In this document: positions 16,659 through 53,796 of the stretch, piece by piece
How positions within the stretch are numbered: the first letter of the stretch is position 1
Layout: the number at the start of each line of letters is the position of its first letter
Assembly: GCA_010405405.1 (NCBI GenBank)
Contig: MU004240.1
Span: forward strand, 820,316 to 884,315
Source: Microthyrium microscopicum
Lineage: Eukaryota
Length of the DNA: 64,000 nucleotides
Direction of reading: 5' to 3'
The notes under the pieces: model-generated
Database searches by the model: none
Seen by the model: only the letters and a program-made list of their open reading frames with translations
Told to the model about the DNA's origin: nothing
Program-made: the position numbers and the translations under genes

Positions 16659-18200
16659 CCTTTTGTGGATGATGGATGGATGAAAAGGTTGACACGGAAT
16701 TCTACTGGAGAGTAGGACCCAAAGGAGAAGCGAGAAGGAGAGTGTTGCACTATTGGATTCCGGGAAGCTTCGAGGGAGTGTGGTCAGTCGCGATAGACTG
16801 AGTAGGAAGGAGCGAGTGCTAAGGTGGCAATTGCTCTAGATGGAGAAGGAACGACGTGGTGTTGTGGTTAATGAACGTGTCTTGGAAGCATTCCTCGAGA
16901 ATATAAGTTTCAAATCCGGTGTTATCAAGTCAACATCTAGGCCGTTAAGATCCAGCTAAACGGCGTTGGAGATTTGAAGGAGAATTGAGAGAGTGACTGG
17001 TATCACTATTGGCGGTTGAAGAGAGGTGAGGTTGAACGTGATGGAGAGGACGAAGCAAAGAAAGAGGTTCACGACAAACGAGCTCGGTCAGTTCAAGGCG
17101 CGTGCTTGGTCTTCATCTTCGCTCCCTTGGAAGGCTTGAGGCTTGGACAGTGGACTCTTCAGTCTTGACAAAGAGGTCGAAGCGGGTTTGCGCCCCTGCT
17201 GGGTGGTATCGCAAAGAGGTACAAGATAGCTGCCATTGGCTGGACGCGTCTTTGCCTATCTGAAAAGGGATTGGGAGATGATTAGTAGGCGCCACTTGAT
17301 GGCTGCCCAGAGCCGACCATGTGGAGTTGCTGTGCTGTGGTGCCTCACCAAGTGCGCCCAAGAGCGATGATTTTCTTGGAGACTTGCAGAAAAGACCTGG
17401 TCAAGCAATTTGAACCTGCATCTGACCTGCAGCCAATTGGTAGAGGGTCCCTTGAAGCTTCACGCGAGCCTCCTGTTCATCCGCCCATCTGTAGATCGCG
17501 TGTTTTATGTTTCCACCTTGAGCAACCACACTGAAGATACCAAGTAACGCTACCATATCATTCTACTAAATAAAGGACTTTGAACATCTAGCTTTTGCTG
17601 CTCAATACCCGCCCAGAACCATCATGTGTCCTATCTGTAGACAACGCTGCAGGTTCATCAATGATCAAGCAAGGTGTTTTTGCTCCCTAGATAAAAGGGG
17701 AAAGCCAATTGAATCCAAAGCGGTTGTGGCTCAACATTAAGTGAGCATCAAGAACGGTTAAAGCAAGGTTATCAGTGGTAGTGATTGGCTGTAACCCCTG
17801 AGAAGGCCGGTCCCGTCTTTGTTTGATGTCGCATCCTTGTCCAACGCCAGTCTCCAGACTCCAGCATTTGTACTTTTTGTTGTCTTGACATGAACCTCAC
17901 AACTTCCGCTGTCGATCAATATGCCGATAAACACAACCATTTCCCGCCCATTTTCCGCCATTCGGTCTATTTCTAGCTGGTAATATTGACTGTGTTATCT
18001 GCCCATTCCGGAGTCGATGTAGCCGGATATGTGTGGACCCTTAGTACTTCTTATACTTTGCCATGAGTCGAAGAAGGCAAACCAACGACAGAACAAGCTC
18101 TCGTATCGAATACTTGCAGGAACAATTGAACACAGCCACAACGGATAAGATGCCGTGAGCTTTTCATTTGAGGCCGTTCAAGAGTCAAAAGAGTCAAGAC

Positions 18201-18266
18201 GACGGCGGACGGTTAGTGGCAAAAGCTCATAAGACCCGTTTAAAAACTTTACGCAACCTAAAATAC
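18201..18266 (+). repeat. Left terminal inverted repeat, followed by about 5 copies of an 8-bp CTAAAACG-like subterminal repeat to about 18300
   Basis: GACGGCGGACGGTTAGTGGCAAAAGCTCATAAGACCCGTTTAAAAACTTTACGCAACCTAAAATAC matches the reverse complement of 53107-53172. Confidence 0.82.
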
Positions 18267-21200
18267 TAAAACGCTAAAACGCTAAGACGCTAAAACACTA
18301 AAAAAGCAAAAAAGCAAAAAATTAAAAAATTAACATCTATAAAAATTAACTTAGTAATCTTTAGAACTAGCGAGATTTAAACCTATAATTATTACCTTAT
18401 TAAAGTGCTACTTTCCTACTTAGCTATAGTTCTAATTTCTTTAGGATTAGGGTTATTATATATTTATATATATACCTATACTATAATTATTATACTTTTC
18501 TTTTTAGAATTTTAGCTATATATTTATAAAATCTATTAGTCTTATAATTTTTACCTTAATACTATAAGTATTATAAATTTAACTCTAACTATTAGTAATA
18601 AATAAAAATCTTTATTACTTTATTAGTATAGTTATAACTACTCTAAAATAGCTAAAAAGAGAATATAATAACTCTCTACTAGCTAATAAAGTATTCTTAC
18701 TACTTAAAAATAATTATAACTTCTAATAAACTAAATAATAAAGTAAATAATATATATATCTTAGTTAATAGAAGCTTAAACCTTTTTTAAGTTAACGCGT
18801 TAACTTTTTCTATAAAGCTATATTTATTTCTAAACTTAATTTTCTCTACTTTACTTTACTACTCTACTTTACTACTATAATATAAACCTTTATTGTACTT
18901 AGTAGTTCTACTAAACTATTATTACTTAAAGATAACTTTTTAAAAGCTAACCTAATAATAAAATTATAGGCTATACTATATAAATCTAGTCTTATTAAAC
19001 TAGCCTCTACGCCTTAAAAGTTAAACTTCTAATAAGACTATAACTTTAAACCTTCTTTAGCTTTTACTTCCTAAAAGTTAAATTTCTAACTAAACTATAA
19101 CTTTAAACCTCTAGCTTTTAAAAGTATAATACCCTTATTAGATACTCTACTTCTTAAAATTATAAGTATAAGCTATCTACTACTTTAAAATATATTAAAA
19201 GCTAATTCTAGTAATAGAAATAACTTTTATTATAAAGTTCCTAAGGTATATATCTATAAAGTAAGATATTCTTTATTACTTACTAGTATTTTTACTATTA
19301 TATAAATAAAATAGTAGCCTTTAATATTTAAAGATAAGTAATATTCTTTAATTACTAAGTATATTATTTCCTTTTCTTAACTTTTATATTATAATAACTT
19401 AAATATTACTTAACTCTATTATACTTTAAGGATTTAACTTAATATAAAGCCTTTAAACTTTATAAAATATTATTAAATAAGGACTTACTTATTTAGGTAT
19501 ATCTAAAAAACTTTACTAAAAAGCTTTTTCTTACTATAGTACTCTATAATACTTTCCTTACTAACTATTATAAAAACTTACTAATAAGTTACTACTCTAT
19601 ATATAGTTATTTTATAAAAACTAGTATATTACTAATTATTTTTAAGATTTACTAGGAAAACCTAAAAAATACGTCTATTACTAAATAGTTATTTTAAATT
19701 TATACCTAAAGATAATTTTTATAAGTCTCTATTAAGAATAATATAGTTAAATATCTAACTATTAAAACTTTAAAAATACTAGTATAAAATAAATATAATA
19801 TTAGGACTTAACTAGCTAAGTAAAGTAACCTTATAAAATTAGTTAATCTTTACTATAAGCCTATTATATTATTATAAAGTTAAGACTCTAATAGTAAAAT
19901 AGAAAAAGAGCTAGAAGAGAATAATAAGGAAATAGAGAGCTTATAATAATAATACTAGTATTAGCTTCTAGTATATATATCTATATTATATTAATACTAA
20001 TTCTCTAGTTTACTCCTACTAAGCTTTTTTACTATAGTAAGCTATTACAAAATCTTACTATTAAAAATAATAATAAGACCTTTTATTATTATAATAATTA
20101 GTAAGCCTATAGTAATAATTAGTAAGACTTAAATATTTATAAAAGATTAGCTCTTCTTTCTATCTTAAAGCTATATACTATAATACTTAAATCTTACTTT
20201 ATTCTACTAATAATAAAGGTTTAGGTCTTTCTTAATATTAAATTTTATTTCTATTAGAAATTAGGAAATAAGGCTTTATAAAATATATACTTATTAGTAT
20301 TAAAATAGAAATCTTAGTAAATATAATAACTAAAGTAAAAGTTATAATACTCTTAGTATTATAAAATAGCTATTATATTATTAGAGTATCTAATTACTAT
20401 CTAACTTCTATATTAAAAACTTACTATAGTAAATAAAAGGATCTAAAATAATACTACCTAATATTTTATAAAAAAGCTACTAATCTTTTACTTTTATTCC
20501 TACGCGCTTTAATTATTCTCTTTTTATATATATAAAATAAACTTTAAATTTTATCTTCTTATTCTTTACTATCTATATACTATAAATAAACTTACTACTA
20601 TTTTTTATATTTTATAATATAGCTACTTTTAATCTTATACCTAACTAATAAAAAAGTCTTCCTTAGAGTAAAGTTATTATAATTATATTAGTAAGGCTTA
20701 AAAAGCTTAAAGCTAAACTTTTTATAAATAATATTATATAAATTCTAACCTTTAATAATTCTAATAATAATAAAAAAGATATATATATCTTTAATATTAT
20801 ATAATTTCTTTACGTAGTTATAAAATATAACTAATACTACTTATAATATAACCTCCTTAAGCTTATTTTTAATAAGACTTTCTTTTCTAGATCTAGTATA
20901 TAGATACCTACTAAAGTATATATAAATATTATATAGTTTTAAGATTTATATTACTTCTTAATATACTCTATAAATATTATTAAAAGAAGCTACTATATAA
21001 ATTTACTCTTTATTATAATAAGTATAGCTATAGCTTATCCTAATTCTAGCTAACTTCTAGTAAGTATATATATTATTAATTCTTTCTTTTTAAAATACTA
21101 ATCTTTATTATAGATTTACATAAATAAAGGCTAATATACTAGATACTACCATTTATTACCCTAATACTTTAAACTATTAACTAAATAGTAGGCTTAGTAC

Positions 21201-24200
21201 GTAAATCTATAAATAGCTAATAATAAGTATAGACTTTATAGAAGCATAACTAATCCTATTACTATTAATTAAGTTTACTAGGGATTAGACTTTATATATT
21301 ATTAGATAATTAAAGTAAAAACTTAAGTATACTATTATATAAATAGTTAAATAAAATTAGAACTTATATAATATCTTAAGTATATCTCTCTTATACTCTT
21401 AGAAATATTATAGCTTAATTTATAGTAAATACTAGCTTTATATATAAAGTAATAGTATAAAAAAAAAGTAGTATTAAAATAGATTTATCTTTAAAAAAAA
21501 GAGCCTACTTTTTATTCTAAAAAAATAAGATATAAATATAACGTTCTTACTAAGAATTAAACCTAAGACTTTATAATTTAAAGTATATTAAAAGTATATT
21601 ATGCTACTTAACTATAAGAACTAATTTTTCTAGAATAGTTATAGCTAAACCTAATATATAAAGTATATAGAACTTTAACTATTCTTATTATAGTAATATA
21701 CTTAATAATTTACTAAATATATAGGACATAGAATTAACTATAAAAATTAAAAGATATTAATTTATTAAAGCTATTTATTTAAGGTATAAAAATATATCTT
21801 AGAGGTATTAGAAAAATATATAAAAAACAATAAGTTAGTAAGCAAATTAAATATTATTAATATTATTTTAAACTAAAGAAGTAGTAAATAATAACTTATA
21901 TTAGAAGAATATAGCTATTAAAGATGCCTTAAAATAAATCCTATTCCTTTCCCTAAATATTTATAACTTATTAATTTTATATCTTAGCCTCTTATATAGA
22001 AATAAAATAGAAGTAAAACTATTTATAGTCTAAAATATATCTAGCTATTTTTAATATAATATATAATAATAAAAGTACTTAATTAATACTTATAATAAAT
22101 AAAAGAGACTAATTCTAAGCCTAAAGAAAGAGCTTTTATACTACAAAACTCTTTACCTCCTTAGTCTATTAGATCTAATATAAACTTTTAAATAAAATTC
22201 TAAAAGATTATATATATAGCCTTATAGTTCTACGTAACTTAAGCTATCTCTATTAAATTTACTATAATATTAAAAAGATATTTCTATATATTAGTTATAT
22301 TTATATATAAAGCTAATATATTTTTAGTATAGACCTTAATAAATACTAAAATAATTATTTTCTATTACTATATAGTACTATATATAGAATCTTTAGAGTA
22401 ACTTATAAAATTAAAAATAGTCTTATATCTATAAAATTAAAGTATACTAATTTCTTAAATTATAGTAATAGTTTATATTTTAAAGTCTTTTATAGTTTTT
22501 TTAGAATAAGTAATAATATAGTATAGTCTAATAGTAATAACGTCTCTATATAATAGTAGTTAAATAAATTAATAACTAAATAGTAACTAATAGCTTAATA
22601 AAGGTTCTAAAGTTTCTAGATTAATATAAGCTAAAGCTATAATATAGCTAATATTAAGTAATTAGATATCTAGAACCTTTATAAGCATTTAGCTATAATT
22701 TAGGTAAAGGAGTTTAGTAAGAAATATTAAATACTCTAGTATAACTTATAATAATATATACTAAAGAGTTATAATACTAATAATTTATATAACTTTTAAA
22801 TTTTAGAGTAGATACTTTAACGCTTAATTAATTTTTTTAACTAAAGGATTACTCTAGTTAAGTATAAGATTATAAAAATTGCCTTTAATAGTAATAATAT
22901 AAAGCTTATTATTAGAATTATTTAGTAAGTTAGCCTTCTAGAAATATATTATTACTACTTTAATGCTATTACTACTTAAGTTAATACTAACGTAATAAAT
23001 ATTTAGATACTTCTTTAAGTTTCTAATATAAAGGCTAAGGTTTTTACTACTATAGCTAATATTTAAAACTAAACTATCTTAGTATATTACTATATTAAAG
23101 AATCTATCTTTAGTAAGTATTTTTATAATATTATTACTAAGATCTTACTAAAACTAATTACCTATATAATTATTTTAGCCTTACTTATTTATAAACTACT
23201 ATACTTCTATATTATAGAATTTATATACTTCTTTCTTATTTATTATTTATTATACTATTATAAAGAACGTTAAAGAGGTATCTTATAAACTTAGTAGAGC
23301 CTTAGCTATATAAGAAAATATAAAAATTATTATTCTAAAAGAGTAAAGTTAATTAAATAGAGGCTTAAAAATTAGGGTTTATTATAACTAACCTATTAAA
23401 AAAAATAGGTAGTTATTAATAATAAAATTAGTTAAGGAGAAATTCTAGAGGTAGTAGTTAAAGAAATATTAAGAAGATATTAATAAAAAAGAGTTAATAG
23501 CTAAGAATTAATAAGAGGAAACTAATAAAAAATAGTTAACGTTAAAGAAGAGATAATAAAGAGGTATTAAAGTAATAAAACTATTTAAGGAGCTAAGAAT
23601 ATTTAATTATATAGAAGTTAAGGAGTATATTAAAGAAGAAGTAGTAAAGTAATAAAGTAGATAAATTTATATTATTTAACTATAATAAAAGTTACTTAAT
23701 AAGTATCTAATCTATAAATACGCTATACTTAAACTTAAAATTAATTAAGTAAAGCTAATATAAGTAAAATAAAAACTACTAATACTAATACCTTAAGAAG
23801 ATAACTAATTTAATTACGTATAATTTTAAAATTTTAATAGTAAATAATTATAAGGCTAGTACTATCTACTTAACTAGTATAATTAGTTTATTTATATATT
23901 AATACTTCCTAAATAACTAATTAAACCCTTACTATATAGAAAAACCTTAGTTTATTATCTTATTTTATTATTAGGCTAATTTCTAAATATAATAGTTTAA
24001 AAATTCATTACTACTTTAAGAAAGAATTCCTTCACCCTTTAATTAAACTTCTTCCTTCTAGGTTACTATATAGTATTTTACCTTTCTATATTATAGATTA
24101 TAACTAGTATCTAGTAGTAAAGTAAGTCAAGGCGTCTTTATTATTACTTCTAAGAAAACCCCTTAAGTAATTTATTAAACTTATTAATATTAATACTACT

Positions 24201-24911: not shown

Positions 24912-27900
24912 TATAACGAGCTACAGAACTTAGAGTAAGTAGATAATTAGATTATATTCTAGAATCTATAAATAGGAGAGAGAAAGAAGAAGATCTAGAA
25001 GAGCTATAGATCTATAAGGGATGTAAGTCTGCTTAGTAGATTCTTAGGCGTGCTAACCCCTTTAGGTTTAGCGTATAATCTTATAATAAGATCTTTCTTA
25101 TAATATTGCTATAAAGCCTATAAAGAGGAATTATTATATAACTCTTTCCTTTAGTATAGCTCTCTAGGCTATAGATTACTAATTATAACTACTTTCCTAA
25201 TCTATTCTATTTTAATCTAGTCTAGTCTAGTCTAGTTTAGTCTAGTCTTATCTAGTCTAATAAACTTTTAGTAATAAATAATATTTTAATCCTTTTATAG
25301 TATAATACTAACCTTATTAGTTATTTAAAGTATCTTAATTTTTAGCCTACTAAGGTAACTATTAAGAAGTATTAATAAACCTTAAGATATTCTTAGAATA
25401 CTCTAGTTCTTAAGTCCTAGTAGTCTAGTAGTTAGTAATCTTATTAGTATAAGGGAATTAGTAGTATAATTATTTACTCTTTTTAATTAGTAGGAACGCT
25501 ATTAGAGTTATAATTAATACTATTACTAATAGGCTCTAGTATTAGTAGTATCTAGGTAGGATATAGGCCTAGCTTATTAGGGTACTAAGTATAAAACTTA
25601 GTAATAAGCTCTAGCGCGTTTTTAGTAGCTATTTAATTATATTATTTAGCTTTATTATAACTAGTATACTTAATCTTATATTATAGCTTCTTATATTAAC
25701 TAGTAAAGTAGTTATTAATAATAGTATTAATAGACTATTTATTGTTATTTATAGTTTTTCTAATAACTACTAGTAGTAGATTAGTATACTTAAGTAGCTT
25801 AGTATTATCTATAATATAGTAGAGGACCTAAACGTAGAAAATATTATATATCTTTATAAAAGAGAGGAGATTAAGTTTATAAGTAATAGTATTAATTTTC
25901 TTAATTATATAGAAGGAACTTATATTCTTATTATTTAGAGTCTTTAAGAAATATAAAGTAGAGTAATTCTATATATCTAAGTAAACTTAGTTACTTAGTA
26001 ATAAGTCTAGAGCTATATAGTAATAATAGTTAGCATATTCTACTTACTAAGCTTATATCTAGATTAATTACTCTATTAAGTAATTATATATCTTAGTATA
26101 TTTTTTCTATATTATATCTATATTAATAGCTTCCTTATTAGTAGCTATAGAGGCATTTATAGGTTTTAGGAGGCAATATAAAAACTTAAGGCCTAAATAA
26201 GAGTTAAATCTATTTTAAGCTTTAAAGGATATAACTCCTATAGTAGCGTTTATAATAAAATTAACTATAAATTTAGTAAAGAGTAGAAAGGCTACCTAGT
26301 TATCTTAATCCTAATTAATAAATATATATAAGAACTACTTAAGTATAGTAACTAAGATTTCTATTATACTATTAGTTTTAGAATAAAATACTATACTAAG
26401 ATAAAGTATTATGTTTACGTATTTATATAAGCGCTTCTAAAACGTAAAGATAAATTAGCTATTATAGTCTAAAAGAATTATTAATAGCTAGCTAATAAGC
26501 TTCTATATATAGTTAATAAAGGCTAGTACTATTAAGTCTATAAATAAGTCTAGTAGTAGAATAAAATATTAAGTTTATATATATTAGTTAATAACTACTA
26601 TAACATATTAATAGATTATACTTTAGTATAAATAGTAAGGTAGTAAGATAGTAAAGTTAATAGAAATATTAGACTATATGTACTTAGAAAGAAGGAATTA
26701 ATATAGAAAGCCTTACTTCTTTTAGTAAATAGGTTTAGTAAATATATATTTATAGCTTTTAATAAAGCTTTTAATATTCTATAATATTTTAAGCTACTAG
26801 TAATCTTTTTATAAGTAGTAGTAAGTTATTACTACTTTACTATAGTCTATAGCTTTATAGCTATATATACTCTATATAGTATAATGCTAAAGCTTACCTT
26901 AAAGGATAAAGATCTAGTTATAGTAAAGGATTATTTTATTAATAGCTACTATATAGTCTCTAAGCTTAATCTACTCTTATTTTAGAGTACTAAAGAGTAA
27001 GAAGAGTTAATAGTTAGTCTTAGTATAGTAAATAGTAATTATTATTTTGTTATACTCTACTATATTTATAATATCTTATAAGAACTAGTTACTATTAAAA
27101 TTTAGAGATAGATTATTTCTTAAGGAATTAAGTAGCTTATCTTTAGACGTCTTATTATTACTAAGAGACTCTTTTATAAAATTAAGTAGCTTACTTATAG
27201 GATTAAAAATATCTAACTTATTCTAAGTAATAGTAGCTAAGTATAGTATTAAGAAGTAAGTAGGTTTAATAAGTAATATAGCTAGCTTTACTATATATTT
27301 TATATTAAATTAGTATAGAAATAGTAAAGATTAGACTTATTAAGAGATATAAGGATTATTATTACTTTATAGAATATTTTATAACTAATAAGTAAAGGTA
27401 TTTGCCTTTCTATTAGCTATACTTAGGTAGTACTTTATTTTAAAGTAAAACTAGAAGAGGAACTTAGCCTATTTAGCTTATTATTAAGAGAGATATTTTA
27501 TTATTATAAATATTTAAAGATTATAATAATTAGAAAATACTTAAATAGGGTTAATAGAGCTAAATAGCTCTAGTTCTTACTTTTTAAATACGTAAATAAT
27601 AGTTAGAAGCTCTTTATTATAAATATTATAATTATATTTTACTAAAGTTATTTTCTTTAAGAAATATATAACTAGGTAAAGCTTCCTATTATTACCTTTT
27701 TAAGAAAAGACTATAGCATAAACTTAATCTAAGGTATCTATTTTTAGCTATATTTCTTTTATATAATTAAAGTAATATAATATTTTAGTAGATATAAAGT
27801 CTTACTTTAGCTTCTTAAATATATATTTTTCTAGTCTATTAGGGTCCTAAAAAAAGATTACTATAGCGTCCTTCTTTATAAGTACTATTAGTAGTGCTAT

Positions 27901-30900
27901 AGTTTTTAAATATTTAAGAATAAATTAATAGTAAAAGTTAGTAAAGTTAAAGAAAGCTTAAACGTTTTTTATTAAAAAGAGATATTACTAATTAACTATA
28001 CTTTAAACCTTCTTTAAGTCTATCTTAATACTTTTAGTAGTAATAATTAGGCTAAAGTATTTAACTTATTAAGTATTAAATTTATACTTCTAAATATCTA
28101 AGTATAATCCTACTTTACTTATTATTTTTAGAACTAAGTAGGTATAAGTAGTATAGCTAGCTTTAGTATTACTAAAGACTAATAGATTATCTATATAGCC
28201 TATAATAAAGTTATCTAGGTAATTAATTAGGATATAGTTAAGATAAGCTTAGAAGGTTCTTAAGGCTCTAGTAAAGCTAAAGGGCATAACTTTAAATTTA
28301 TATAACTTATAATAAGTTAGAAATATAGTTTTATATTTATTATTAGGTTTAATATAAATATATATAAAGGTAGTAATAATATTAAATTTAGAGAAGTATT
28401 TTATATAATAGATATAAGTAAGTATTTCTAATAGCTATAAAGGAATATTATAATTCTTTTATATAATCTTATTAAGTTTATAATAATTAATATAAACTTA
28501 AATTCCTCCTCTTAGTTTATATATATATAATATTAATATAATATAATATAACTTACTAGCTTAAACTTAATCTTAACTAAGTATTTAATTAACGTATTAT
28601 TTAATAATAAAGAATTTCTAGTAACCTAGGCTATTATAGTAGCATTTAAAGATTATAGCGTCTAGAATAATATTAATAAAGTAATCCTATTTACTATAGT
28701 ATAGTATAAGTTTATTACCTAATTTTAGATTAAAAATATTTATATAATAATAATATTTCTTTAGTAAATATTTAAGAATTTCTTCTTATAAGAAGAGAGG
28801 CTTATTATACTTCTCTTACTATTTTTTAAAATCTTTAAGTAAAATTTTACTTAAATTAATAGTAATATCTTCTTTTAGTATAGGATCTAGATTTAGAAGT
28901 TTCTTTTCCTTTTTATTTTTAAAGTTATTAAGCTAGATTTTATTAAATTACTAGCTTTATTCTAATAACTTAATAAAGGTAGTAGTACTAACTATAGTAA
29001 TATTTTTAAAGTAAAGGTCTATTAGATTAACTAAGTAGCCTTTATAATTTACTAAGATTAGGTAGCCTACTAGTAAGTAGTATATAAGGTAGTAGTCTAA
29101 GTTAAAGTAGATTTATTTTTTACTTCCTTTAAGAATAACCTTATAGAGATTAATTTAAGGGTTATTAAGGATAAGGTTATAGCTAGTAATATTTATAATA
29201 AAGTAATAAATTTATTTAATATACTCTTCTAAATAGATATTAACTATAGTAGCTTTATTAACTTTTATAATAGCTTTACTATTAGCTAATTATATAATTT
29301 AGAAAGCAAAAAGATTAATAGTAAAGATTTTATATTATTTAATAAAGTTAGGATAAATAATTCCTATTACTCTACTACTAATATTTATAAAAATATTAAT
29401 TTTTAAGTAGTAGCCTTATTTTAAAGAAAATATAGTACTAAAGGTAGTCTATTAGTTACTTACTATAGATATAGTAGCTACTTCTTAAGAATAGAAATTA
29501 TATACTATAGAAGTAAGGAATATTTTAATAATAGCTAGTTTAGTATTATTAAATATAATAAGCTCTAGAGATAATACTTATTAAAGATTACTTTCTAGGC
29601 GCTAGATAGTCTTATTAACCTTATATTAGATTTATTCTTTAAAGAGAATTAGCTTAGAGTTAAGTTTTTCTTTCTTTTATTACTAATTATATACTTTTTA
29701 CTTATTTAGCTCTTTTATATATCTCTATAAAGAAGCTTTTAGTTTTCTATATTATTATTATAATTATACTTATTATAATTATCCTCTATAGTTAAAGACT
29801 AAGGAGATTAAGTAGTAATTTAATTATAAATAGTAGTAAACTCTATAATAATAGTAGTAACCTTTAGTTAGATTTTAGTATCTAAAAAGGTATCTTTATC
29901 TTTATATAGTGCTAAGTTATATTAATAGCTATAGCCCTTCTCTTTATACTTTATATAGTAGTTATTAGCCTTTAAGGTATTATAGATATCTAAAGAGTAG
30001 TTAAACTTTAGTTTCTATTTACTACTCTTAGCTACTAAATAATTATTATTATTATAGCTTTATAAATTAGTAAAGGGAATATATTTAATATAATAAGTAA
30101 TAGTATATAAGCTTTTAAGAAAGTTAATAAATATTTTTAATTTTATAAAGAGTACTCTCTTTATAAACTTTAGAAATAGAAGAGAATATATTTTAATAAT
30201 CTTATCTTAATTACTAAGCTTAGCTTCTTATAAGTTCTCTAAGAAGTAAGCTAGGAATTATTTAAGCTTCTTAATAGGCTTTATTATAGCCTCTTAACTT
30301 TTAAGCTAGGTTTTAGTAGTAATATAGCTATCTTTAATACTATACTTATAGTTTAGATTAGACTATATTTCTACTATAAATAAATATAAGTTAATTAATT
30401 TATAGTTATTTTACTTATTAATAATATTAAATACTTAATTCTTTATTACTCCTTAGATAACTTAGATCTTAAAGGCTTTTATAAGATAGACTTATATATT
30501 ATTATTAAGGTAATCTAATACTTTACCTTTCTAAGTATAGTACTTCTACTTATTCTTTTCTAAGAAGAGTAAAGATTTATTATTCTATACTTTAAAAAAA
30601 AAAGTACTACTAACTAAGTTAAAGTTAGAGAAAAGAGTAATTTAATATAAGTCTAGTATTCTTAGAAGTATATTTAAGTTAAGTTAGTCTATATCTTAAG
30701 CTAAGAAGATCTAGTAAAATAAATTATTATCTACTAACTTATTATAATTAAGATAAGGATTAGTTACCTTAGTAGCTAAGAGTTTCTTTTAAAGAGCGTT
30801 AACTTAAGCTTAAAGAATAGTAGCTTTATCTACTTTCTTCTATAAAGCTTTATAGTATTTATTAATCTTATTAATATAGATAGTAAGTACTTCTTTAAGT

Positions 30901-40493: not shown

Positions 40494-43400
40494 TGTAATG
40501 AGCTGCGGAACTTAAGCGAGTAAATAATTAGATTGTATTCTAGAATCTATAAATAGGAAAGAGAGAGAAGAAGATCTAGAAGAGTTATAGATTTATAAGG
40601 AAAGTAAGTTTACTTAGTAGATCCTTAGGCGTACTAACCCTCTTAGGTTTAGTATATAATTTTATAATAAGATCTTTCTTATAATACTACTATAAAGCCT
40701 ATAAAGAGGAATTATTATATAACCTTCTTTTTTAGTATAGCTTTCTAAGCTATAAATTACTAATTATAACTACTTTCTTAGTTTCTTCTATTTTAATTTA
40801 GTTTAGTCTAGTCTAGTCTAGCCTAGTCTAGTTTAGTCTAATAAACTTTTAGTAATAAGTAATATTTTAATTCTTCTATAGTATAATACTAATTATACTA
40901 GTTATTTAGAGTATCTTAACCTCTAGCCTATTAAGGTAACTATTAAGAAGTATTAATAAACCCTAAGATATTCTTAGAATACTTTAATTCTTAAGTTTTA
41001 GTAATCTAGTAGTTAGTAATTCTATTAATATAAAAAAATTAGTAGTATAATTATTTACTTCTCCTAATTAGTAAGAACGCTATTAGAGTTATAATTAATA
41101 CTATTACTAGTAGGCTTTAGTATTAGTAGTATTTAGGTAAGGTATAGGCCTAGCTTACTAGGGTACTAAGTATAAAACTTAGTAATAAGCTTTAGTATAT
41201 TCTTAGTAGCTATCTAATTATACTATTTAGCTTTATTATAACTAGTATACTTAATCTTATATTATAGCTTCTTATATTAACTAATAAAGTAGCTATTAAT
41301 AATAGCATTAATAGACTATTTATTATTATCTATAGTTTCTTTAATAACTACTAGTAGTAAATTAGTATACTTAAGTAGCTTAGTGTTATNNNNNNNNNNN
41401 NNNNNNNNNNNNNNNNNNNNNNNNNNNNNNNNNNNNNNNNNNNNNNNNNNNNNNNNNNNNNNNNNNNNNNNNNNNNNNNNNNNNNNNNNNNNNNNNNNNN
41501 NNNNNNNNNNNNNNNNNNNNNNNNNNNNNNNNNNNNNNNNNNNNNNNNNNNNNNNNNNNNNNNNNNNNNNNNNNNNNNNNNNNNNNNNNNNNNNNNNNNN
41601 NNNNNNNNNNNNNNNNNNNNNNNNNNNNNNNNNNNNNNNNNNNNNNNNNNNNNNNNNNNNNNNNNNNNNNNNNNNNNNNNNNNNNNNNNNNNNNNNNNNN
41701 NNNNNNNNNNNTAGAATGCTATACTAAGATAGAGTATAATATCTATATATTTATATAAATACTTCTAGAATATAGAGGTAAATTAGCTACTATAGTTTAA
41801 AAGAATTATTAATAGCTAGCTAATAAGCTTTTATATATAATTAATAAAGGCTAGTACTATTAAGTTTATAAATAGGTTTAATAATAAAATAAAACGCTAA
41901 GTTTATATATATTAGTTAATAACTACTATAACGTATTAATAGATTATACCTTAGTATAAATAGTAAAGTAGTAAGATAGTAAAGTTAATAGAAATATCTA
42001 ACTATATATATTTAAGGAAAGGGAATTAATATAGAAAGCCTTACTTCTTTTAGTAAATAGATTTAGTAAATATATATTTATAACCTTTAATAAAGCTCTT
42101 AACGTTCTATAATATCTTAGGCTACTAATAATCTTTTTATAGGTAATAATAAGTTATTATTACTTTACTATAGCTTATAGCTTTATAGCTATATATACTC
42201 TATATAGTATAATACTAAAGCTTACCTTAAAGAATAAAAATTTAGTTATAATAAAGAATTATTTTATTAATAGCTACTACGTAGTCTCTAAGCTTAATTT
42301 ACTTTTATTTTAAAGTACTAAAGAGTAAGAAAAGCTAGTAATTAGTCTTAGTATAGTAAATAGTAATTATTATTTTATTATATTTTACTATATTTATAAT
42401 ATTCTATAAAAACTAGTTACTATTAAAATCTAGGAATAAGTTATCTCCTAAAGAATTAAGTAGCTTATCCTTAAGCGTCTTATTATTACTAAGAGACTCT
42501 CTTATAAGATTAAGTAGCTTATCTATAGGATTAGAAATATTTAACTTATTCTAAGTAATAGTAGCTAAGTATAGTATTAAGAAGTAAGTAGATTTAATAA
42601 GTAATATAGCTAGCTTTATTATATATTTTATATTAAATTAGTATAAGAATAGTAAAGGTTAGACTTATTAAGAGACGTAAAAATTATTATTACTTTATAA
42701 AATATCTTATAACTAATAAGTAAGAGTATTTACTTTTTTATTAGCTATACTTAGGTAGTACTTTATTTTAAAGTAAAACTAAGAGAAGAACTTAGCTTAT
42801 TTAGCTTATTATTAAGAAAGACGTTTTATTATTATAAATATCTAAAAGTTATAGTAATTAAAGAATACTTAAATAGAGTTAATAAAGCTAAATAGCTCTA
42901 GTTCTTACTCTTTAAATATATAGATAATAGCTAGAAGCTTTTTATTATAAATATTATAATTATATTCTACTAAAGTTATCTTCTTTAAAAAGTATATAAT
43001 TAGATAAAGCTTCCTATTATTATCTTTTTAAGAAAGAACTATAGTATAAACTTAATTTAAAGCGTCTATCTTTAGCTATATTTCTTTTATATAGTTAAAG
43101 TAACGTAATATCTTAGTAAATATAAAGTCTTACTTTAGCTTCTTAAATATATATTCCTCTAGCTTATTAAGGTCTTAAGGAAAGATTATTATAATATCTT
43201 TCTTTATAAGTACTATTAGTAGTACTATAGTCTTTAAATATTTAAGAATAAATTAGTAATAGAAGTTAGTAAAGCTAAGGAAAGCTTAAATATCTTTTAT
43301 TAAAGAAGGATATTACTAGTTAATTATACTTTAAACCTTCTTTAAGTCTATCTTAATACCTTTAATAGTAATAATTAAGCTAAGGTATTTAACTTATTAA

Positions 43401-46400
43401 GTATTAAATTTATACTTCTAAATATCTAAGTATAATCCTACTTTACTTATTATCTTTAGAACTAGATAAATATAAGTAATATAGCTAGCTTTAGTATTAC
43501 TAAAGATTAATAGATTATCTATATAGCTTATAATAAAGTTATCTAGGTAATTAATTAAGATATAGTTAAAATAAGCTTAGAAGGTCTTTAAGGCTTTAAT
43601 AAGGCTAAAGAATATAACTTTAAATTTATATAACCTATAATAAGTTAGAAATATAATTTTATATTTATTACTAAGTTTAATATAGATATATATAAAGGTA
43701 GTAATAATATTAAATTTAGAAAAGTATTTTATATAATAGATATAGGTAAGTATTTCTAGTAGCTATAAAGGAATATTATAATTCTTTTATATAATCTTAT
43801 TAAGTCTATAATAATTAATATAAACTTAAATTTCTTCTCTTAGCTTATATATATATAGTATTAATATAGTATAATATAACTTACTAGCTTAAACTTAATC
43901 TTAACTAAGTATCTAATTAACGTATTATTTAATAATAAGGGATTCCTAATAATCTAGGTTATTATAATAATATTTAAAGATTATAGCGTCTAGGATAATA
44001 TTAATAGAGTAATTCTATTTACTATAGTATAATATAAGTTTATTACCTAACTTTAGGTTAAAAACGTTTATATAATAGTAATATTCCTTTAGTAAGCGTT
44101 TAAGAATCTCTTCTTATAAAAGAGAAGGCTTATTATACTTCTCTTACTATTTTTTAAAATCCTTAGATAAGATTTTACCTAAGTTAATAGTAATATCTTT
44201 CTTTAGTATAGGATCTAAATCTAGAGGTTTTTTTTTCTTTTTATCTTTAAAGTTATTAGGCTAAATTTTACTAAATTACTAGCCTTATTTTAGTAACTTA
44301 ATAAAGGTAGTAGTATTAACTATAATAATATTTTTAAAATAAGAGTCTATTAAATTAACTAAGTAGCCTTTATAATCTACTAAAATTAGGTAGCTTACTA
44401 GTAAGTAATATATAAGGTAGTAGTCTAAGTTAAAGTAGATTTACTTCTTACCTTCTTTAAAAGTAACTTTATAGAAGTTAATTTAAGAATTACTAAGGAT
44501 AAGGTTATAGCTAATAATATTTATAATAAAGTAGTAAATTTATTTAATATACCTTTCTAAATAGATATTAACTATAATAGCTTTATTAACTTTTATAATA
44601 GCTTTATTATTAACTAATTATATAATTTAAGGAGTAAAGAAATTAATAGTAAGGATTCTATATTATTTAATAAAGTTAGGGTAAATAATTCCTATTACTC
44701 TACTACTAGTATCTATAAAAATATTAATTTTTAAGTAGTAGCCTTATTTTAGAAAGAATATAGTATTAGAGGTAGTCTATTAGTTACTTACTATAGATAT
44801 AATAGCTACTTCTTAGGAATAAAAATTATATATTATAAAGATAAGGAATATTTTAATAATAGCTAGTTTAGTATTATTAAATATAATAGGCTCTAAGGAT
44901 AATACTTATTAAAAATTGCCTTCTAGGTACTAAATAGTTTTATTAACCTTATATTAGATTTATTCTTTAGAAAGAACTAGCTTAGAGTTAGGTTCCTCCT
45001 TCTTCTATTACTAATTATATACTTCTTACTTATTTAGCTCTTTTGTATATCTCTATAGAGGAGCTTTTAGTTTTTTATATTATTACTATAATTATACTTA
45101 TTATAATTATCCTCTATAGTTAAGAACTAAAGAGATTAAGTAATAATTTAATTATAAATAGTAGTAAACTTTATAATAATAGTAGTAACCTTTAGTTAGA
45201 TTTTAGCGTCTAAAAGGGCATCTCTATTTTTATATAGTATTAAGTTATACTAATAGCTATAGCTTTTCTTTTTATACTTTATATAATAGTTATTAGCCTT
45301 TAAGACGTTATAGATATCTAAAAAATAATTAAACTTTAGTTTTTATTTACTACCTTTAGCTATTAAATAATTATTATTATTATAGCTTCGTAGATTAATA
45401 AAGGAAATATATTTAATATAATAAGTAATAATATATAAGCTTTTAAGAAAGTTAGTAAATATTTTTAATTTTATAAAGAGTACTCTTTTTATAAACTTTA
45501 GAAGTAGAAAAAGACGTATTTTAATAATCTTATCTTAATTACTAAGCTTAGCTTCTTATAAGTTTTCTAAGAAGTAAGCTAAGAATTATTTAAGCTTTTT
45601 AATAAGCTTTATTATAGTTTCTTAACTTTTAAGCTAGGTCTTAGTAATAATATAGCTATCTTTAATACTATACTTATAATTTAGGTTAGACTATATTTCT
45701 ATTATAAATAAATATAGATTAGTTAACTTATAATTATTTTACTTATTAATAGTACTAAATGCTTAATCTTTTATTACTCTTTAGATAACTTAGATCTTAA
45801 AGGCTTCTATAAAATAGACTTATATATTATTATTAAAATAATCTAATACTTTACCTTTCTAAGTATAGTACTTCTACTTATTCTTTCTTAAGAAGAGTAA
45901 AAGCTTATTACTCTATACTTTAAGAAAAGAAGCGCTACTAACTAAGTTAAGGTTAGAAAAGAGAGTAGTTTAATATAAGTCTAGTATCCTTAGAAGTATA
46001 TTTAAGTTAGGTTAATCTATATTTTAAGCTAAGAAAGTCTAGCAAAATAAATTATTATTTATTAACTTATTATAATTAAGATAAGAATTAGTTACCTTAG
46101 TAACTAAAGGTTTTTTTTAAAAGGCGTTAACCTAAGCTTAAAAGATAGTAGCTTTATTTACTTTCTTCTATAGAGCCTTATAGTATTTACTAATCTTATT
46201 AATATAAATAGTAAGTGCTTCCTTAAGTAGATTATTATTATATTATAGTTTTTATATCTTTTAATAAGTAGTTACTACTTCCTTAAGAATAATAGTATTA
46301 TTTTAAATTTACGCTTTAAAGTAAGTAATTTACTTTATATATTTATTATTAGTTTTAGCTAAGTCTTATATTTCTCTCTAAGCTTTTAAAGCTTTTTTCT

Positions 46401-47892
46401 AGAGAATATAGATTAAGTCTATATTATAAGTATTTATATTCTACTTAATTTTAAAGAAATAAGCTATAATTTAAGAAGCTAATAAAGAGGCGTAAAGCTA
46501 TATAACTAAGTTATTTAGTATAAGCTTTTCTTTTAATAGATACTCTAGGTCTATACTTAATTTAATTAGATAATAAGAGTAGTAATAAAAGTTTAATTAC
46601 TTTTCTTTATAATAGAAATATATTTCTATATCTTTTAGCTTATTACCTTTTTTATTAAGTATCTTTTATATTTAAGTAGCTTAGAAGATTAAAGGGTTCT
46701 TATTAATAATTAAAGTAACTAGTTAATTAAGGTCTACTATTATAGAGTAGTAAGATATTAATATAAGTAATACTCTAAGGCTTTTAGCTTATTAGTATAG
46801 TTCTATTAGCTATTTATATATTCTAAAAAAAAGTCTAGTATTATTATTAAATTAAAAAAGAGCTAATAGTTAGTTATCTTCTATATTTATTTAGTTTAGT
46901 AAAGTTATTTAACTAGTATTTTAAAAGGCGTCTTCTAATGCTTTAGTCTCTTTACTTTTATAGCCTTATTCTAATAGATAATTATCTTTTAACTTATCTT
47001 TATTTTTTAATAACGCTCTTAAGTTTAGTTCTAGTAGTTTTAATAGTCTTAAGATATTCTCTACTAAATTTACTACTTTTTAAGTAGTATTTAGTTATAC
47101 TATATTTTAAGTATTAAGTCTACTTTAATACTTAGTATATATAGTAAAAGAGTAATATAATAGAGATAAGTTATATAAGTATATAAAAGATAGAGATTAA
47201 TACTAATTATGAAGCTAAGTATAAATAACTAAGAATAATAAGTAAGCTATATAGCTATTAACTTAAGTCTATTAAGTAGAAGCCTTATTAGCTATAGTTA
47301 TAAATAATAAAGAAAGGTATTAGAAGAGAATACTTATTTATTTAATATATTTTAATAGTAAGTATATTAAGTATAATTATAAATATTTAGTAGTAGTATA
47401 AAAGATAAACTTTAGTATTTTATAGAACTAAGGATAAGGAGTAATTAATACTTAGGCTATTAGTAGGTCTAAAAGTATTAAGGAATCCTAACGCTCTAAT
47501 TAGATAAGGAGTTAGTAGAGCTAATAGATTTAATAAATCTATAAAGGATCTTTAATAAAGTCTAAAACTATATATATAGAATATTAATCTATATAGGCGC
47601 TTCTTTAGAAGTAAATTCTAGGGTATATAATATAAATACGTAGATATTTAAATAGTTTATAAATTATATAATAAGCTATAGAACTTAAGCAAGCAGATAA
47701 TTAGATTGTATTCTAGAATCTACGAACAAAAGAGAGAGAGAAAAAGATCTAAAAGAGCTATAGATCTATGAGGGAAGTAAGTCTGCTTAGTAGATTCTTA
47801 GGCACGCTAACCCCCTTGGGTCTAGCGCGTAATCTTACAACAAGATCTCTCTTATAATACTACTATGAAGCCTATGAAGAGGAATTATTACA
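40494..47892 (-). mobile_element. Full-length Ty3/Gypsy chromovirus LTR retrotransposon, RIP-inactivated (copy 2, same family and orientation as copy 1)
   Basis: 226-bp LTRs at 40494-40719 (starts TGTAA) and 47667-47892 (ends TTACA); TSD CTTAC on both sides. Collinear with copy 1, differing mostly by transitions; contains the assembly gap. Confidence 0.93.
41390..41711. other. Assembly gap (322 N)
   Basis: N run inside LTR element copy 2. Confidence 1.
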
Positions 47893-48699: not shown

Positions 48700-50420
48700 C
48701 TAATTTATAAGAAAACTAGGCTAATTAAAACTACTAACTAAAGACGTTAGTTATAATAATTCTAAAGAATTCCTACGTTTTTAATATTTCTTTACTATAA
48801 GACATAATATATAATATACTTAGTAATGCATAGTAAACTAAACTATTATTTATATAATAAATAAGTTATTAAAAACTATATATAAGTCTATAGAAACTTA
48901 GTAAGTCTTAAATATATCTAATATAAAGATACTATTATTATTATAAACTTAGCTTAACTATATAGATATTTCTAAAAGCAAGAACTATTCTAGATCTAAA
49001 TAATATTAATTTTAGTTTATACCTTATATAGTTAGAAATAAATATATTATAGATATTAAACTAACTTTATATATTATTAAACACCTCTTAGATAGCTTAG
49101 AATAAATAATCCTCTATAGTCTCTATTAGCTTATAGAGATTCTTTAGCCTCTCCTAAGGTAGGTAAGGCTAATTAAGTTATTTCTAAATTAAATAGCTAT
49201 TCTAAATATATATAAAACGTAATATAAGCTATTAAATAAGTAGAATATAAATAAAAAGAAATATAACTATTTTAGGTATCTTATCTAATGTAAATTTACC
49301 TTAATCCTATAACTAAATAAAATAAAGCTATATAAGAGTTAGTTATAAGAATATATAAAATAGTATAATATAAATATTTATACTAACTTTTTATAACCCT
49401 AAAGTATTTCTTATAAGTTATTTCTACTAAGCCTTAATCTATTAATTCTCTTTACTAGTTCTAAAGTAATAGCAATCTTAAATTATAATATAAAGAGAAT
49501 TATTAATAATAGCTTAAATAGCTTATATAAGCTAGAGTTAAGCATTAATAATTAATAGCGTTTCGTTTCCTTTATTAGTATAAATAATAGTAGGAATAAT
49601 ATTAATATTATTAACTATATCTAGAAATATTTTATATATAGCTATAGATATTATTATAGAAAGGCTAATATATAACTAAATAATATAATAATTATATATA
49701 TTTATTATTATATATATTTTAATACTAAATAGCTAAAGTTTTAAATATATATCTATTAACTAAATATAGTTAAAGCCTAAAGAGTATTATTAGCTATAAT
49801 ATTATTATAACTATCTAAGACGTATAGCAATATTACTAAGCTAAAATATATAAATAAAATTAAAAAGATAATCTCTACTTATTTATTAATATATAATATA
49901 AGAAATTAAGATAAGAAAAATATACTAAGAGATATTAATACCTTATTATTAGAAATATATATAAGATAGACCTTAACCTAATAAATTTATAATACCCTTA
50001 ATAAATTTAGCTTATACTACCTCTTATATCTATTCCTTTTATTCTTTTTATTTAGATTTACTAAGTTAATAATTAAGACCTAACTCTTTATAAATTTTTA
50101 CTAGTTAAAGTTAAGTAATCTTAAAGCTATCCTTATAAAGTTTTTTAAATAGCTTATCTTTATAAATAATATTATTTAGAAATAAAGCTAAAATACGTAA
50201 TTAAAGTTATAAAAAGTTATTTTAAAAGATCTTAGTATATTTTTATACTTTCTATTTAGAAAAGATACGTTTAAGAGTTAACTTTAAAAGAAAGGTAATT
50301 TTAAGATTTACTAATAGATAAACTATTTAGAGAATAGTAAAACTCTAAACTAAATATAGATTTATAATATATTTATAATAGAGCTCTAAAAGCTTTAAGT
50401 TTATAGTATTTAGCTTCTCT
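48700..50420 (-). pseudogene. RIP-inactivated DDE transposase with an IS3/IS481-like integrase core and a Clr5-like N-terminus (boundaries approximate)
   Basis: Minus-strand reading: GFNYI*LID(49751-3)IYLKL*LFSIKIYIIINIY (from GPN.IWS.D..KL..FGIEIY..ID.Y); IPTIIYTN(49574-6)KGNET (from P..IR.D.G.ET); DCYYFRTSKEN**IK(49433-5)A**K*L (from FG.S..NQRIEAWW.QL); after an intron GTTAGT..CTAAC..TAG, I*NSYLI*K* (from WN.H.IRKQ). Most differences are G-to-A or C-to-T. Confidence 0.82.
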
Positions 50421-50959
50421 TTGCCTTAAGTTTCTTATTTATAAAAAATAGCTCTAATTATACTTTTAGAAACTTTATAGTTTTTTTCTATAGTAAGTTA
50501 TTCTTTAATTTAAATATATATTAATCCTTATCTTTATTATTAATATATCTTAGCTTAATACTACTCTAAAGCTAAGACTCTTCTAAAAGAGTAAGGATTT
50601 CTAAGTATTTTATAAAGATAGTATAGATATAGTAAAGTCTTATAGCTTCTTTATTATTATAAATAATAAGAAGAAAAAAATATATACTATATTTAAATTA
50701 AAATAAAGTTATACTAAAATATAGAGTTTATTAATAAAGATATATAAATATTTAATAAAAAAATTAATAATAATTAGATATTATATAGTTAAGATAATAA
50801 TAGAATATATCTATATAATTAATATAATTATATAAATAATTAAGAAAAAATATTCTATAAAAAGTATATAATATTTAATTCTCTAAAGTCTATTTAAAGC
50901 TATTACCTTAATACTAAAAATTATATAAATATACTAGTTTATATAGACATCCTTTATAA

Positions 50960-51340
50960 ATACTATTACTAAATATTCTATTAATATTATTATAGAGTTA
51001 AATATCTTAATATTACGATTTATTTATATATATACTTTTTAAGTATTTATAAATGCTATAAGTAAACATTTTATTAAAGTTATTATAGAGTTAAAAATCT
51101 TAATATTACGATTTGTTAATATATTTAGTTTTTAAGCGTTTATAAGCATTATTACTAGTTATTCTATTAATATTATTATAGAGTTAAATATCTTAATATT
51201 ATAATTTATTTATATATATAGTTTCTAGATATTTATAAATGCTATAAATAGACATTTTATTAAAGTTATTATATACTTAAAAATCTTAGTATTATAATTC
51301 ATTTATATATATTATTTTTTATATTTATAAAATATTATTA
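50960..51340. repeat. 93-bp tandem repeat, about 4 units arranged as two 186-bp dimers
   Basis: The motif TATAGAGTTAAA(T/A)ATCTTAATATTA recurs at 50991, 51084, 51177 and, more diverged, at 51270. Alternate units are more similar to each other. Confidence 0.82.
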
Positions 51341-53106
51341 TTAATATTTATAATTATAATTATTTATTTATAAATATCTTTACTATAAGTTTATATTATA
51401 TAGTATTATAAAATTAATATTATTATAAGTATAAAAGTCTTATTACTAATTTTATTAAGAATATAGAGTTCTATATATTTATTAAGGTTTTATTAGCTAT
51501 TTAAAGTAGACGTACTATTATAAATTTATAAGAACGTAGAAATATTAAAATTTATAAAAAGGAGTTTATTATATTTATCTATAGAAAAGAAAAGAACTTA
51601 AGGTAATAAAAAGCTTAAAAATAAGCGCCTATATATTATATCTAATATTTTATTTACTATAAAATATTTCTTACCTATATTAACTTAAAAGAAAATTAGT
51701 TAATTTTATAAGACTAGTTATAAAAACCTTTATAATATATAAGTTTATTATTAATTTTATTAACCTAAGTAGAGTAAATATAGACTTTCTAGTTAGTAAT
51801 TAAGTTAGCATAACCTTTATAAGTAAGTTTATCTAAGTTCTTTTAATATAAACTTATAAGAAAATACTTATAAGTATATATACTACTATAAGTAATCTAA
51901 TAAGCCTATAAAAATATTAGTTAAAATTATATAAAAGAAAAAATTAATTTAATTTATAAGTATATTAATAGAATTAATAGAATTTATAACTACTATAGTA
52001 ATAGTAAATAGGCTAGTAAAAACGTGCTTATATATAAGCTACTTAATTAGGTTATAAGTTAATATATAAACGTTACTAATATAAATATACGTAGTAAAAG
52101 TATTAACTAATATTAAAAAGATAAGATTATTATTAATAAAGATAAGTTATTTCTCTAAAGTATTAGTCTAATAAAATTAAGTAGACTATAAGTAGAGAAA
52201 AGCTATATTAAAAAAAATAGTAAGTTCTTTAAGACTTAGAGTACTAGTAGTATTAGCTAAGATATTAAAGTTAATAAAATAAGTATAAATAAAGGCATTA
52301 ATACTAACTTAACTAACTATAATCTAACTATTATAAAGAGTCTACTAAATATTAATTAGTATTCTAGTAGTAGCTTATTAAAATATTAGTTATTATTTAT
52401 AATTTATATATAAAACTTACTTTAGTAATAATAACTAATTATTTAAAAGAAATAAGTAAAGTAGATAAATAAAGCTAGTAATTAAGAAAAAAAAATTTAA
52501 GAAATTTCTTATACTTATAAAATACTAAGAGCCTTTAAAAATAAAGAGAGAACTATTAAGAAAACTTTTATATAATAAAAGAACTTTATAAGATATAATA
52601 GTAGATACCTATTAAAAGTTAAAGTTAAAGAAAAAAGAAGAAGAGATATAAAAGAAAGAATTATAAGGCTTTATAAAAGTAGTAGAATAGCTAATATAAT
52701 AAAATTCTAAGCACTACTTTAAGCCTACTATATTAAAGCTTTAACTTTAAAAAATATATATTAAGGTTTTAATATTAAAATATTAAAAAAGAAAGCTATA
52801 ATAAGTTTATTATAGTACCTAACTAAATAGAAAATATTCTCTAAGATTCTATTTATTTCTTTTTAGTATAGCTAGAAATAGTAATAATAAGTTAAACTCT
52901 ATAATAAGAAAGAATAAGTTAAGAGTTAAATAAGAAAAGTCTAAAGAAAGAAGTTATAATACGTTTATTATAATAAAAGCTTTAAATATTAAGTACTTTA
53001 AATTATTAAGCTAATTATTAGGGCTTTTTCTAATTAGTTAAATTTTTACTATACTTTTATATAATATTAAGAATATAGTATATAGATATAACATCTTAGT
53101 AGAATT

Positions 53107-53172
53107 ACGTTTTAGGTTAGGTAAAGTTTTTAAATAGGTCTTGTAATACTTTAGTACTAACTGTCTACCATA
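53107..53172 (-). repeat. Right terminal inverted repeat (reads TATGG... from the outer end)
   Basis: Reverse complement TATGGTAGACAGTTAGTACTAAAGTATTACAAGACCTATTTAAAAACTTTACCTAACCTAAAACGT; immediately followed by CAAGAC on the plus strand. Confidence 0.82.
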
Positions 53173-53796
53173 CAAGACCCTTTCATAAATTCACAAAATT
53201 CTAAGCTTATGTCTCCTCCGCCAATGATAGAACTATATTCCTAGCCATGCAAGCCTTTTCACGCCATTCTTAACCCCGTTTTCAATCTTATCGAGTAACA
53301 ATCCTGGTATTCAGTCCTTCTTCATCTCCGCGAATTAAAGTTGAATATCAAGAAGCTTGAGTCTGAAATACTTTGTGATATCATACACGACTACCCTTAT
53401 CAACCTCACTCCACCTTGCGTCCTCGTCCTAGAAAAAGATTGTAGATATGGAAATTGCTCTCTAGTCCAAAGACTGGATCGAAATTGCAAGACCTTTGTA
53501 CTATCTAGAGCTTGTTTACCCTCTCAGTACTCTATAAAGTCGTGATTTCTACTCGATTTTCCACGCAGTCACAGGTGGTTACGCTCCGCTTGATGATAGA
53601 AACATACTATTATGATCAACGAATTTATGATCAGCGGCATCTATATTCCTGCAGTCAGGTCTCAGCCTGGCGGTACGCCGATGCTTGCTTCTTTTTATAC
53701 CATCATCTTGAGTGCGGCGAGTAAAGCCGAACAAATATCCAAGACCAGTGTTCATGTGCCGAGTTTTCAGACTCTCAAAACTCCTTCGACTCAAAA

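Follow-up and report, generated by a model that had tools for sequence, protein, structure and literature searches.

A 35-kb AT-rich island of Microthyrium microscopicum delimited by the ends of a probable IS3EU-type transposon

Results

Ends of the element

Here we analyzed a 64,000-nt stretch of the Microthyrium microscopicum genome (the window; assembly GCA_010405405.1, contig MU004240.1, positions 820,316 to 884,315, with coordinates below counted from its first letter) that holds an AT-rich island bounded by a pair of terminal inverted repeats (TIRs) and an exact target-site duplication (TSD). Both the TIR pair and the TSD are real, and together they very probably mark a single insertion event of a TIR transposon, which spans 18201-53172 and is 34,972 bp long. 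The terminal 66 nt of the left edge align without a gap to the reverse complement of the right edge and are identical at 46 of 66 positions, with transitions (C/T or G/A) making up 15 of the 20 mismatches. The left TIR (18201..18284, plus strand), which has a 66-nt core and extends to 83 nt when compared by purine/pyrimidine class, starts GACGGCGG, so that the left terminus is GACGG. The right TIR (53089..53172, minus strand) ends in CCATA, which reads TATGG as the reverse complement. The exact 6-bp repeat CAAGAC adjoins both ends, with its left copy at 18195-18200 and its right copy at 53173-53178. Overlapping the inner part of the left TIR is a subterminal array of 8-nt direct repeats (18258..18333, plus strand; score 59 at an offset of 8), which begins with units of the CTAAAACG type and continues with A-rich units; these are possible candidates for transposase-binding repeats. 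The boundaries had been proposed in an earlier note made from the sequence (the original prediction), which read the entire island as one giant IS3EU-like DNA transposon of about 20 kb net with passenger genes. The AT-rich island, the 66-bp ungapped inverted repeat, the CAAGAC direct repeat, and the two termini were all found as it had described them.

Because the DNA here is only 18% GC, plain identity is a poor statistic for these ends: 97 real pairs of interior zones reached up to 44 identities, and 100 shuffles up to 38, next to the 46/66 observed. Identity was also scored by purine/pyrimidine class, which is left unaltered by repeat-induced point mutation (RIP) since RIP turns C to T and G to A. 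By class, 61 of the 66 positions match between the two TIR arms, whereas the 117 control pairs reached no more than 55 (58 from the interior) and 54 (59 of mixed composition). A RIP-invariant scan of 17000-54500 for inverted repeats ranks the TIR pair first, at 83 nt and a score of 59, with runners-up scoring 40, 38, 38, and 36. Using a RIP-tolerant pattern of the TIR core (up to 3 mismatches), we found matches in the window at the two ends only, where 100 shuffles gave an expectation of 0; the same core pattern had 0 matches in metagenome contigs. The chance of an exact 6-bp repeat at fixed boundaries is 1 in 4096.

Composition and surroundings

GC content per kb is 0.14-0.27 at 18-53 kb, versus 0.39-0.54 in the flanks, and the edges are sharp. 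The RIP index, (CpA+TpG)/(ApC+GpT), is 0.04-0.07 in three segments of the host element and in the two retroelements nested within it, and 1.30-1.31 in both flanks. The ratio TpA/ApT is 1.5-1.7 inside the island versus 0.7-0.8 outside. RIP is thus saturated inside and halts at the TIR ends; it mutated the whole unit to saturation, up to the ends, while the family was multicopy. The outermost 66 nt on the left are lighter in RIP (index 0.40, GC 0.44) and less mutated than the right arm, as expected at the edge of a formerly duplicated unit.

The island lies between ordinary genes, and there is no spread of RIP into them. To the left are a cytochrome P450 gene split by introns (12892-14553) and a GH16 glycoside hydrolase gene (16245-16658), and to the right is a gene for a calcineurin-like metallophosphoesterase (55186-56148).

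Nested Ty3/Gypsy elements

Two near-identical Ty3/Gypsy copies have inserted into the element, each with its own long terminal repeats (LTRs) and 5-bp duplication. Element A (24912..32565, minus strand) has 227-nt LTRs at 24912-25138 and 32339-32565 and the TSD CTTAT at 24907-24911 and 32566-32570. Element B, of the same family (40494..47892, minus strand), has 226-nt LTRs at 40494-40719 and 47667-47892 and the TSD CTTAC at 40489-40493 and 47893-47897. The 5' LTR of B starts TGTAATGAGC, the remaining three LTRs start TATAA (TG to TA), and the 3' LTRs end TTATTACA. The Pfam domain RT_RNaseH_2 was detected in both copies (E=7.8e-12 in A, E=4e-12 in B), and SH3_Tf2-1 was detected in A (E=5.4e-4, minus strand), where it lies downstream of RT_RNaseH_2 in the minus-strand order. 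In addition to the paired LTRs and 5-bp TSDs, a control search with the pol frame matches proteins with RVT, RNase H, and rve domains.

At 89% identity, A and B differ almost exclusively by transitions. In purine/pyrimidine space they score 5948 over 5978 nt, and this near-identity by class indicates that they were virtually one sequence before RIP. Together the two copies make up 15.1 kb of the element. Removing them, each with one TSD copy, leaves 34,972 - 7,659 - 7,404 = 19,909 bp, in agreement with the two LTR elements and the roughly 19.9 kb net that had been predicted; an assembly gap inside B (41390-41711, 322 N) makes the true lengths of B and of the island uncertain.

The TSDs of A and B differ by one RIP-type change and their wider flanks are unlike, so that the near-sameness is either target preference or coincidence. 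About 48 nt directly upstream of the B 5' LTR (40448-40493) resemble the stretch upstream of the A 3' LTR, and over 32291-32563 and 40448-40717 the two regions are 84.8% alike. This hints at the remnant of a third copy or at a tandem arrangement.

Repeats and depth in the remainder

We next considered the 19.9 kb outside the Gypsy elements, using contigs of four sequencing runs from one sample, probably the source, that match 16000-35999 at 80% likeness or more. In run X1, the summed contig depth, which is not equal to copy number and serves as a hint only, is 47-76 over 18.7-24.7 kb (where the region's own contig, 18432-24954, has a depth of 39.7), 2,786-5,123 over Gypsy A, 180-249 over 32675-35342, and 23 over 35343-35999 (own contig depth 22). 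The remaining three runs follow the same pattern, and the left-end bin, 18001-18667, shows excess depth in three of the four. These values hint that, at this likeness, the sample lacks a close second copy of most of the left 6.7 kb. They likewise hint that segment U (32571..35190), with a summed depth about 5x that of single-copy island DNA, belongs to another, moderately repeated family. The Gypsy A family is very abundant in the sample, its summed depth being approximately 70-125x that of neighboring island DNA. Many of the other copies have G or C at positions that are A or T in element A, so the family includes members less mutated by RIP.

RIP-tolerant local alignment also gave a tentative internal inverted repeat, with its left arm at 18467..18535 (plus strand) and its right arm at 35117..35186 (minus strand). 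It extends over 70 columns at about 85% identity and scores 47.5; among the other 71 of the 72 real comparisons of island segments, two score 39 and the rest 33.5 or less. The right arm sits at the right edge of segment U. Weak, gappy direct similarities, scoring 39 each, join 20741-20815 with 34331-34405 and 19805-19966 with 39088-39264.

Two tandem arrays lie in the remainder, one in which a 24-nt unit recurs about 30 times (37852..38571) and one with four to five copies of a 93-nt unit (50953..51417). Both units are multiples of three. Of the coding-type signs that had been claimed for this DNA, only these arrays are there; the intron signals and the acidic or coiled-coil texture claimed alongside them were not confirmed.

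tRNA-like relics

Near the left end is a RIP-mutated tRNA-like relic (18362..18433, minus strand) that scores 30.7 bits with the Rfam tRNA model, where the gathering score is 29. Its 7-bp acceptor stem is intact, and its T-loop, GGUUUAAAUCU, reads like a RIP-mutated B box. A second, borderline relic (21542..21621, minus strand) scores 27.6 bits, under the gathering score. ARAGORN in its default setting calls neither relic, and with -ps90 it calls exactly these two, where 60 shuffles gave a mean of 0.42 calls and two or more calls in 4 of 60. The -ps80 setting was rejected as a test, with 26 calls in the island versus 11-25 in each of 20 shuffles. The two relics do not form one family of short interspersed nuclear elements, because their acceptor stems differ. 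A T-run lies about 15-20 nt downstream of each, and some 30 nt separate the first relic from the 18467..18535 arm of the tentative internal repeat. The relics may be cargo or may belong to unrelated DNA. Neither of them is the insertion target, since ARAGORN finds no tRNA gene in the modeled empty site.

Candidate reading frames

All six frames were read through stops, with an X placed at each stop. For Gypsy pol, used as a control, stops per 300 codons number 17-22 in the true frame and 30-66 in the other frames. By this measure the strongest candidate for the remnant of a long frame lies at 20001..23600 on the minus strand, where 23-29 stops per 300 codons (mostly 23-26) are found in one constant frame, a pattern like that of Gypsy pol. 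Two weaker candidates are found at 35.6-36.8 kb on the minus strand (22-26 stops per 300 codons) and at 48800..50300 on the plus strand (23-29 stops per 300 codons). The latter is where the original prediction had placed a transposase, and it has no family or homologue in the searches described below. Three-periodicity of G+C was dropped as a coding test, being too weak even in the Gypsy control.

Comparison with known transposons

Across IS3EU families, the termini are described as always TA..TA and the TSDs as usually 6 bp (PMC10045372). The fungal families are given with a 6-bp TSD, a TIR longer than 30 bp, and the termini TAYGG..CCRTA, and their gene content as a transposase, an alpha-kinase, and sometimes a TET/JBP gene (PMC12730594). 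Five named consensus sequences, IS3EU-1_TuIn from Tuber indicum and IS3EU-1_PGra, -6_PSt, -7_PSt, and -3_PCor from rusts, are 8,069-12,049 nt long and start TATGGAG, TACGGAAG, or TACGGCAAGG (Kojima 2025, Table S1, PMC12730594). A further relative, REP9/Styx of Zymoseptoria, is 7.9 kb (7,927 bp) long, with 43-bp TIRs, 6-bp TSDs, and four genes (PMC8232023, PMC10853768). In these accounts, known fungal IS3EU elements carry two to four genes (PMC12730594, PMC8232023, PMC10853768). The IS3EU termini and 6-bp TSDs that the original prediction had named fit the published description (PMC10045372, PMC12730594).

The Microthyrium element resembles these families, as far as they are described there, in its 6-bp TSD, its TIR of more than 30 bp (66 nt without gaps, 83 nt by purine/pyrimidine class), its CCRTA right end, and its A-rich subterminal region. 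The right end, CCATA, matches the fungal IS3EU terminus at 5/5 bases, and the left end, which would read [G]ACGGCGG after reversal of RIP, can be set beside the TACGGCAAGG start of IS3EU-1_TuIn. Unlike them, it has G as the first base of the left end and spans 35 kb gross, or 19.9 kb without the Gypsies; and where the published consensus sequences are 8.1-12.0 kb with transposase, alpha-kinase, and TET/JBP genes, no gene is readable here. REP9/Styx is likewise an ascomycete TIR element with 6-bp TSDs; its own reported features include an IS3EU-related integrase-like transposase and extra genes, and it is subject to RIP in sister species. Styx is described as active and multicopy, whereas the present copy is RIP-dead and, judged at 80% likeness or more in one sample, appears to be mostly single-copy.

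Discussion

The reading toward which we lean is that of an old TIR transposon insertion of the IS3EU/GingerRoot type, destroyed by RIP and enlarged by nested repeats, with no proven giant cargo. Judged by its ends, the element is probably of IS3EU type. An original element of the known 8-12-kb class together with unrecognized nested debris is more likely than a 20-kb cargo carrier. The element is dead now, and no gene in the island is readable. In such a scenario, the transposon would have entered an intergenic site between ordinary fungal genes. A DDD/E (integrase-like) transposase would have bound the 66-83-bp inverted ends and the 8-nt subterminal repeats, cut the target with a 6-bp stagger, and joined the element, and repair of the stagger would have left the CAAGAC duplication. 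Apart from the two Gypsy insertions, at least one further segment (32.6-35.2 kb) from another repeat family would have been added.

Tentatively, the arms of the internal inverted repeat may bound a nested 16.7-kb element that includes Gypsy A, and removing this would leave approximately 10.8 kb, which is inside the known 8-12 kb range of IS3EU elements.

Several results weigh against this account, beginning with the internal repeat itself. It is AT-rich, its purine/pyrimidine score of 40 is not significant by our estimate, and the only TSD found for the putative nested element is TATATA, which is uninformative. For segment U, the search for terminal repeats, ends, or a TSD gave nothing above the null, and the depth that sets it apart is subject to the caution given above. 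The left 6.7 kb is evenly RIP-saturated up to the TIR, and the low-stop frame in this part persists over 3.6 kb; both would fit the element's own sequence. At the left end, GACGG matches TAYGG at 4/5 positions, with G in place of T as the first base, and since this is a transversion, RIP does not account for it.

The searches for proteins also count against it. The six-frame Pfam search of the island at E<=0.1 returned only Gypsy domains and DUF3432, a match to the 24-nt array at E=0.056 that was taken as noise; it found no passenger gene and neither rve nor any other transposase family, where a member of the IS3EU clade would have a DDD/E transposase with an integrase-like core and no HHCC. 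At E<=10, Pfam gave 0 families in 12 read-through frames of 47906-53172, and the three candidate frames together with six frames of 38600-40512 gave one noise match (E=3.6). A phmmer search of the 1,200-residue frame at 20001-23600 on the minus strand alone against 1.84 billion representative proteins had 0 matches, and a word-based homology search with 48800-50599 on the plus strand had none among 7,998 scored candidates. The degraded IS3/IS481-like DDE transposase that had been placed some 3 kb inward of the right end was not recovered, either by Pfam across 47906-53172 or by the word search. In the sensitivity control, the same method gave the Gypsy pol frame only E=3.4e-8 at 20% identity with 3 matches, and Pfam misses the rve and RVT_1 domains of the Gypsies themselves. 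Misses of a transposase therefore weigh little, because even the nested Gypsy pol is barely detectable at this level of RIP. As no protein of the host element was detected, the superfamily assignment is drawn from the ends alone. The claim of one IS3EU-like transposon accordingly holds for the ends, which are those of one TIR insertion and whose TSD, TIR, and CCATA fit, and it falls short at the transposase.

The foremost alternative is that of the original prediction, in which the 17-20 kb outside the Gypsies is the element's own content, a large IS3EU-type transposon with passenger genes, perhaps including tRNA genes, that was moved as a unit by its DDE transposase. That the element is truly such a 17-20-kb cargo carrier we regard as unlikely. 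It would explain why everything lies within a single TIR pair and a single TSD and why the island is evenly saturated with RIP as far as the TIRs and no farther. The constant low-stop frame at 20.0-23.6 kb, the weaker ones at 35.6-36.8 and 48.8-50.3 kb, and the two tRNA-like relics would also find a place in it, and published fungal IS3EU elements already have two to four genes. AT-rich RIP blocks are, however, commonly repeat nests. In this one, no passenger protein gene was recognized, and the remainder is heterogeneous, with an approximately fivefold difference in summed depth between neighboring interior parts and a possible internal TIR pair, so that it possibly holds at least one further nested element. 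The published lengths, as far as given, are also shorter, at 8.1-12.0 kb for the five named families and 7.9 kb for REP9/Styx. The fullest version, a 17-20-kb IS3EU-type DDE transposon about twice the size of any described family, whose passengers included RNA polymerase III genes (now the two tRNA relics) and a roughly 1,200-residue protein, is slightly less likely still.

It is doubtful, and somewhat more so than the large carrier, that the element belongs to some other superfamily of TIR transposons with 6-bp TSDs, perhaps one not yet described, and that its IS3EU-like termini are coincidental. The left terminus, GACGG instead of TAYGG, would fit this, as would the failure to detect an integrase-like transposase. 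One other superfamily with TSDs of 6-7 bp is Dada, which inserts at a fixed site inside small RNA genes (tRNA or snRNA). ARAGORN found no tRNA gene at the modeled empty site, and Rfam at the gathering score found no RNA family in the flanks, although a gene split by the insertion would escape that search. Against any other superfamily, the CCATA right end, the TIR of more than 30 bp, and the 6-bp TSD jointly fit the fungal IS3EU families as published.

That the island is a Starship-like element, with movement by tyrosine recombinase, direct repeats, and occasional TIRs, is very improbable. Starships are described with a DUF3435 captain at the 5' end, direct repeats, and TIRs that are present only occasionally (PMC11162782). 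The island resembles them as a large fungal mobile block, 35 kb gross, with short direct repeats at both edges and possibly cargo. A six-frame search at E<=0.1 found no DUF3435 in it, a weak negative given that RIP limits the sensitivity, and those of the candidate frames that are close to either end face outwards, where a captain gene would point inwards. The 66-83-bp TIRs, the TAYGG-type terminus, and the exact 6-bp TSD form the IS3EU signature in the accounts cited and point to DDE transposition.

Least credible of all is that the island is an ordinary repeat cluster degraded by RIP, with inverted and 6-bp repeats that match at its edges by chance. The plain identity, only slightly above the best of the AT-rich control pairs, would fit this. 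Against it, the class identity clearly exceeds both control maxima, the pair tops the RIP-invariant scan, an exact 6-bp repeat abuts both ends, and RIP halts exactly there.

If the 17-20 kb interior does move as a unit, then Starships would not be the only vehicles of cargo transfer in fungi. Such a giant element would be a cargo-mobilizing DDE element, parallel to the tyrosine-recombinase Starships but mechanistically distinct from them. Among the papers searched, none mentions IS3EU and Starship elements together. Because fungal elements of the IS3EU type with several genes and lengths of 7.9-12 kb, such as Styx and those with TET/JBP, have already been published, it would be a step of size and not of kind. 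If instead the more ordinary reading is true, that of an IS3EU-type insertion enlarged by nested repeats, the island would be a well-delimited case of one DNA-transposon insertion seeding a 35-kb AT-rich, RIP-saturated island, and it would extend IS3EU-type elements to one more ascomycete.

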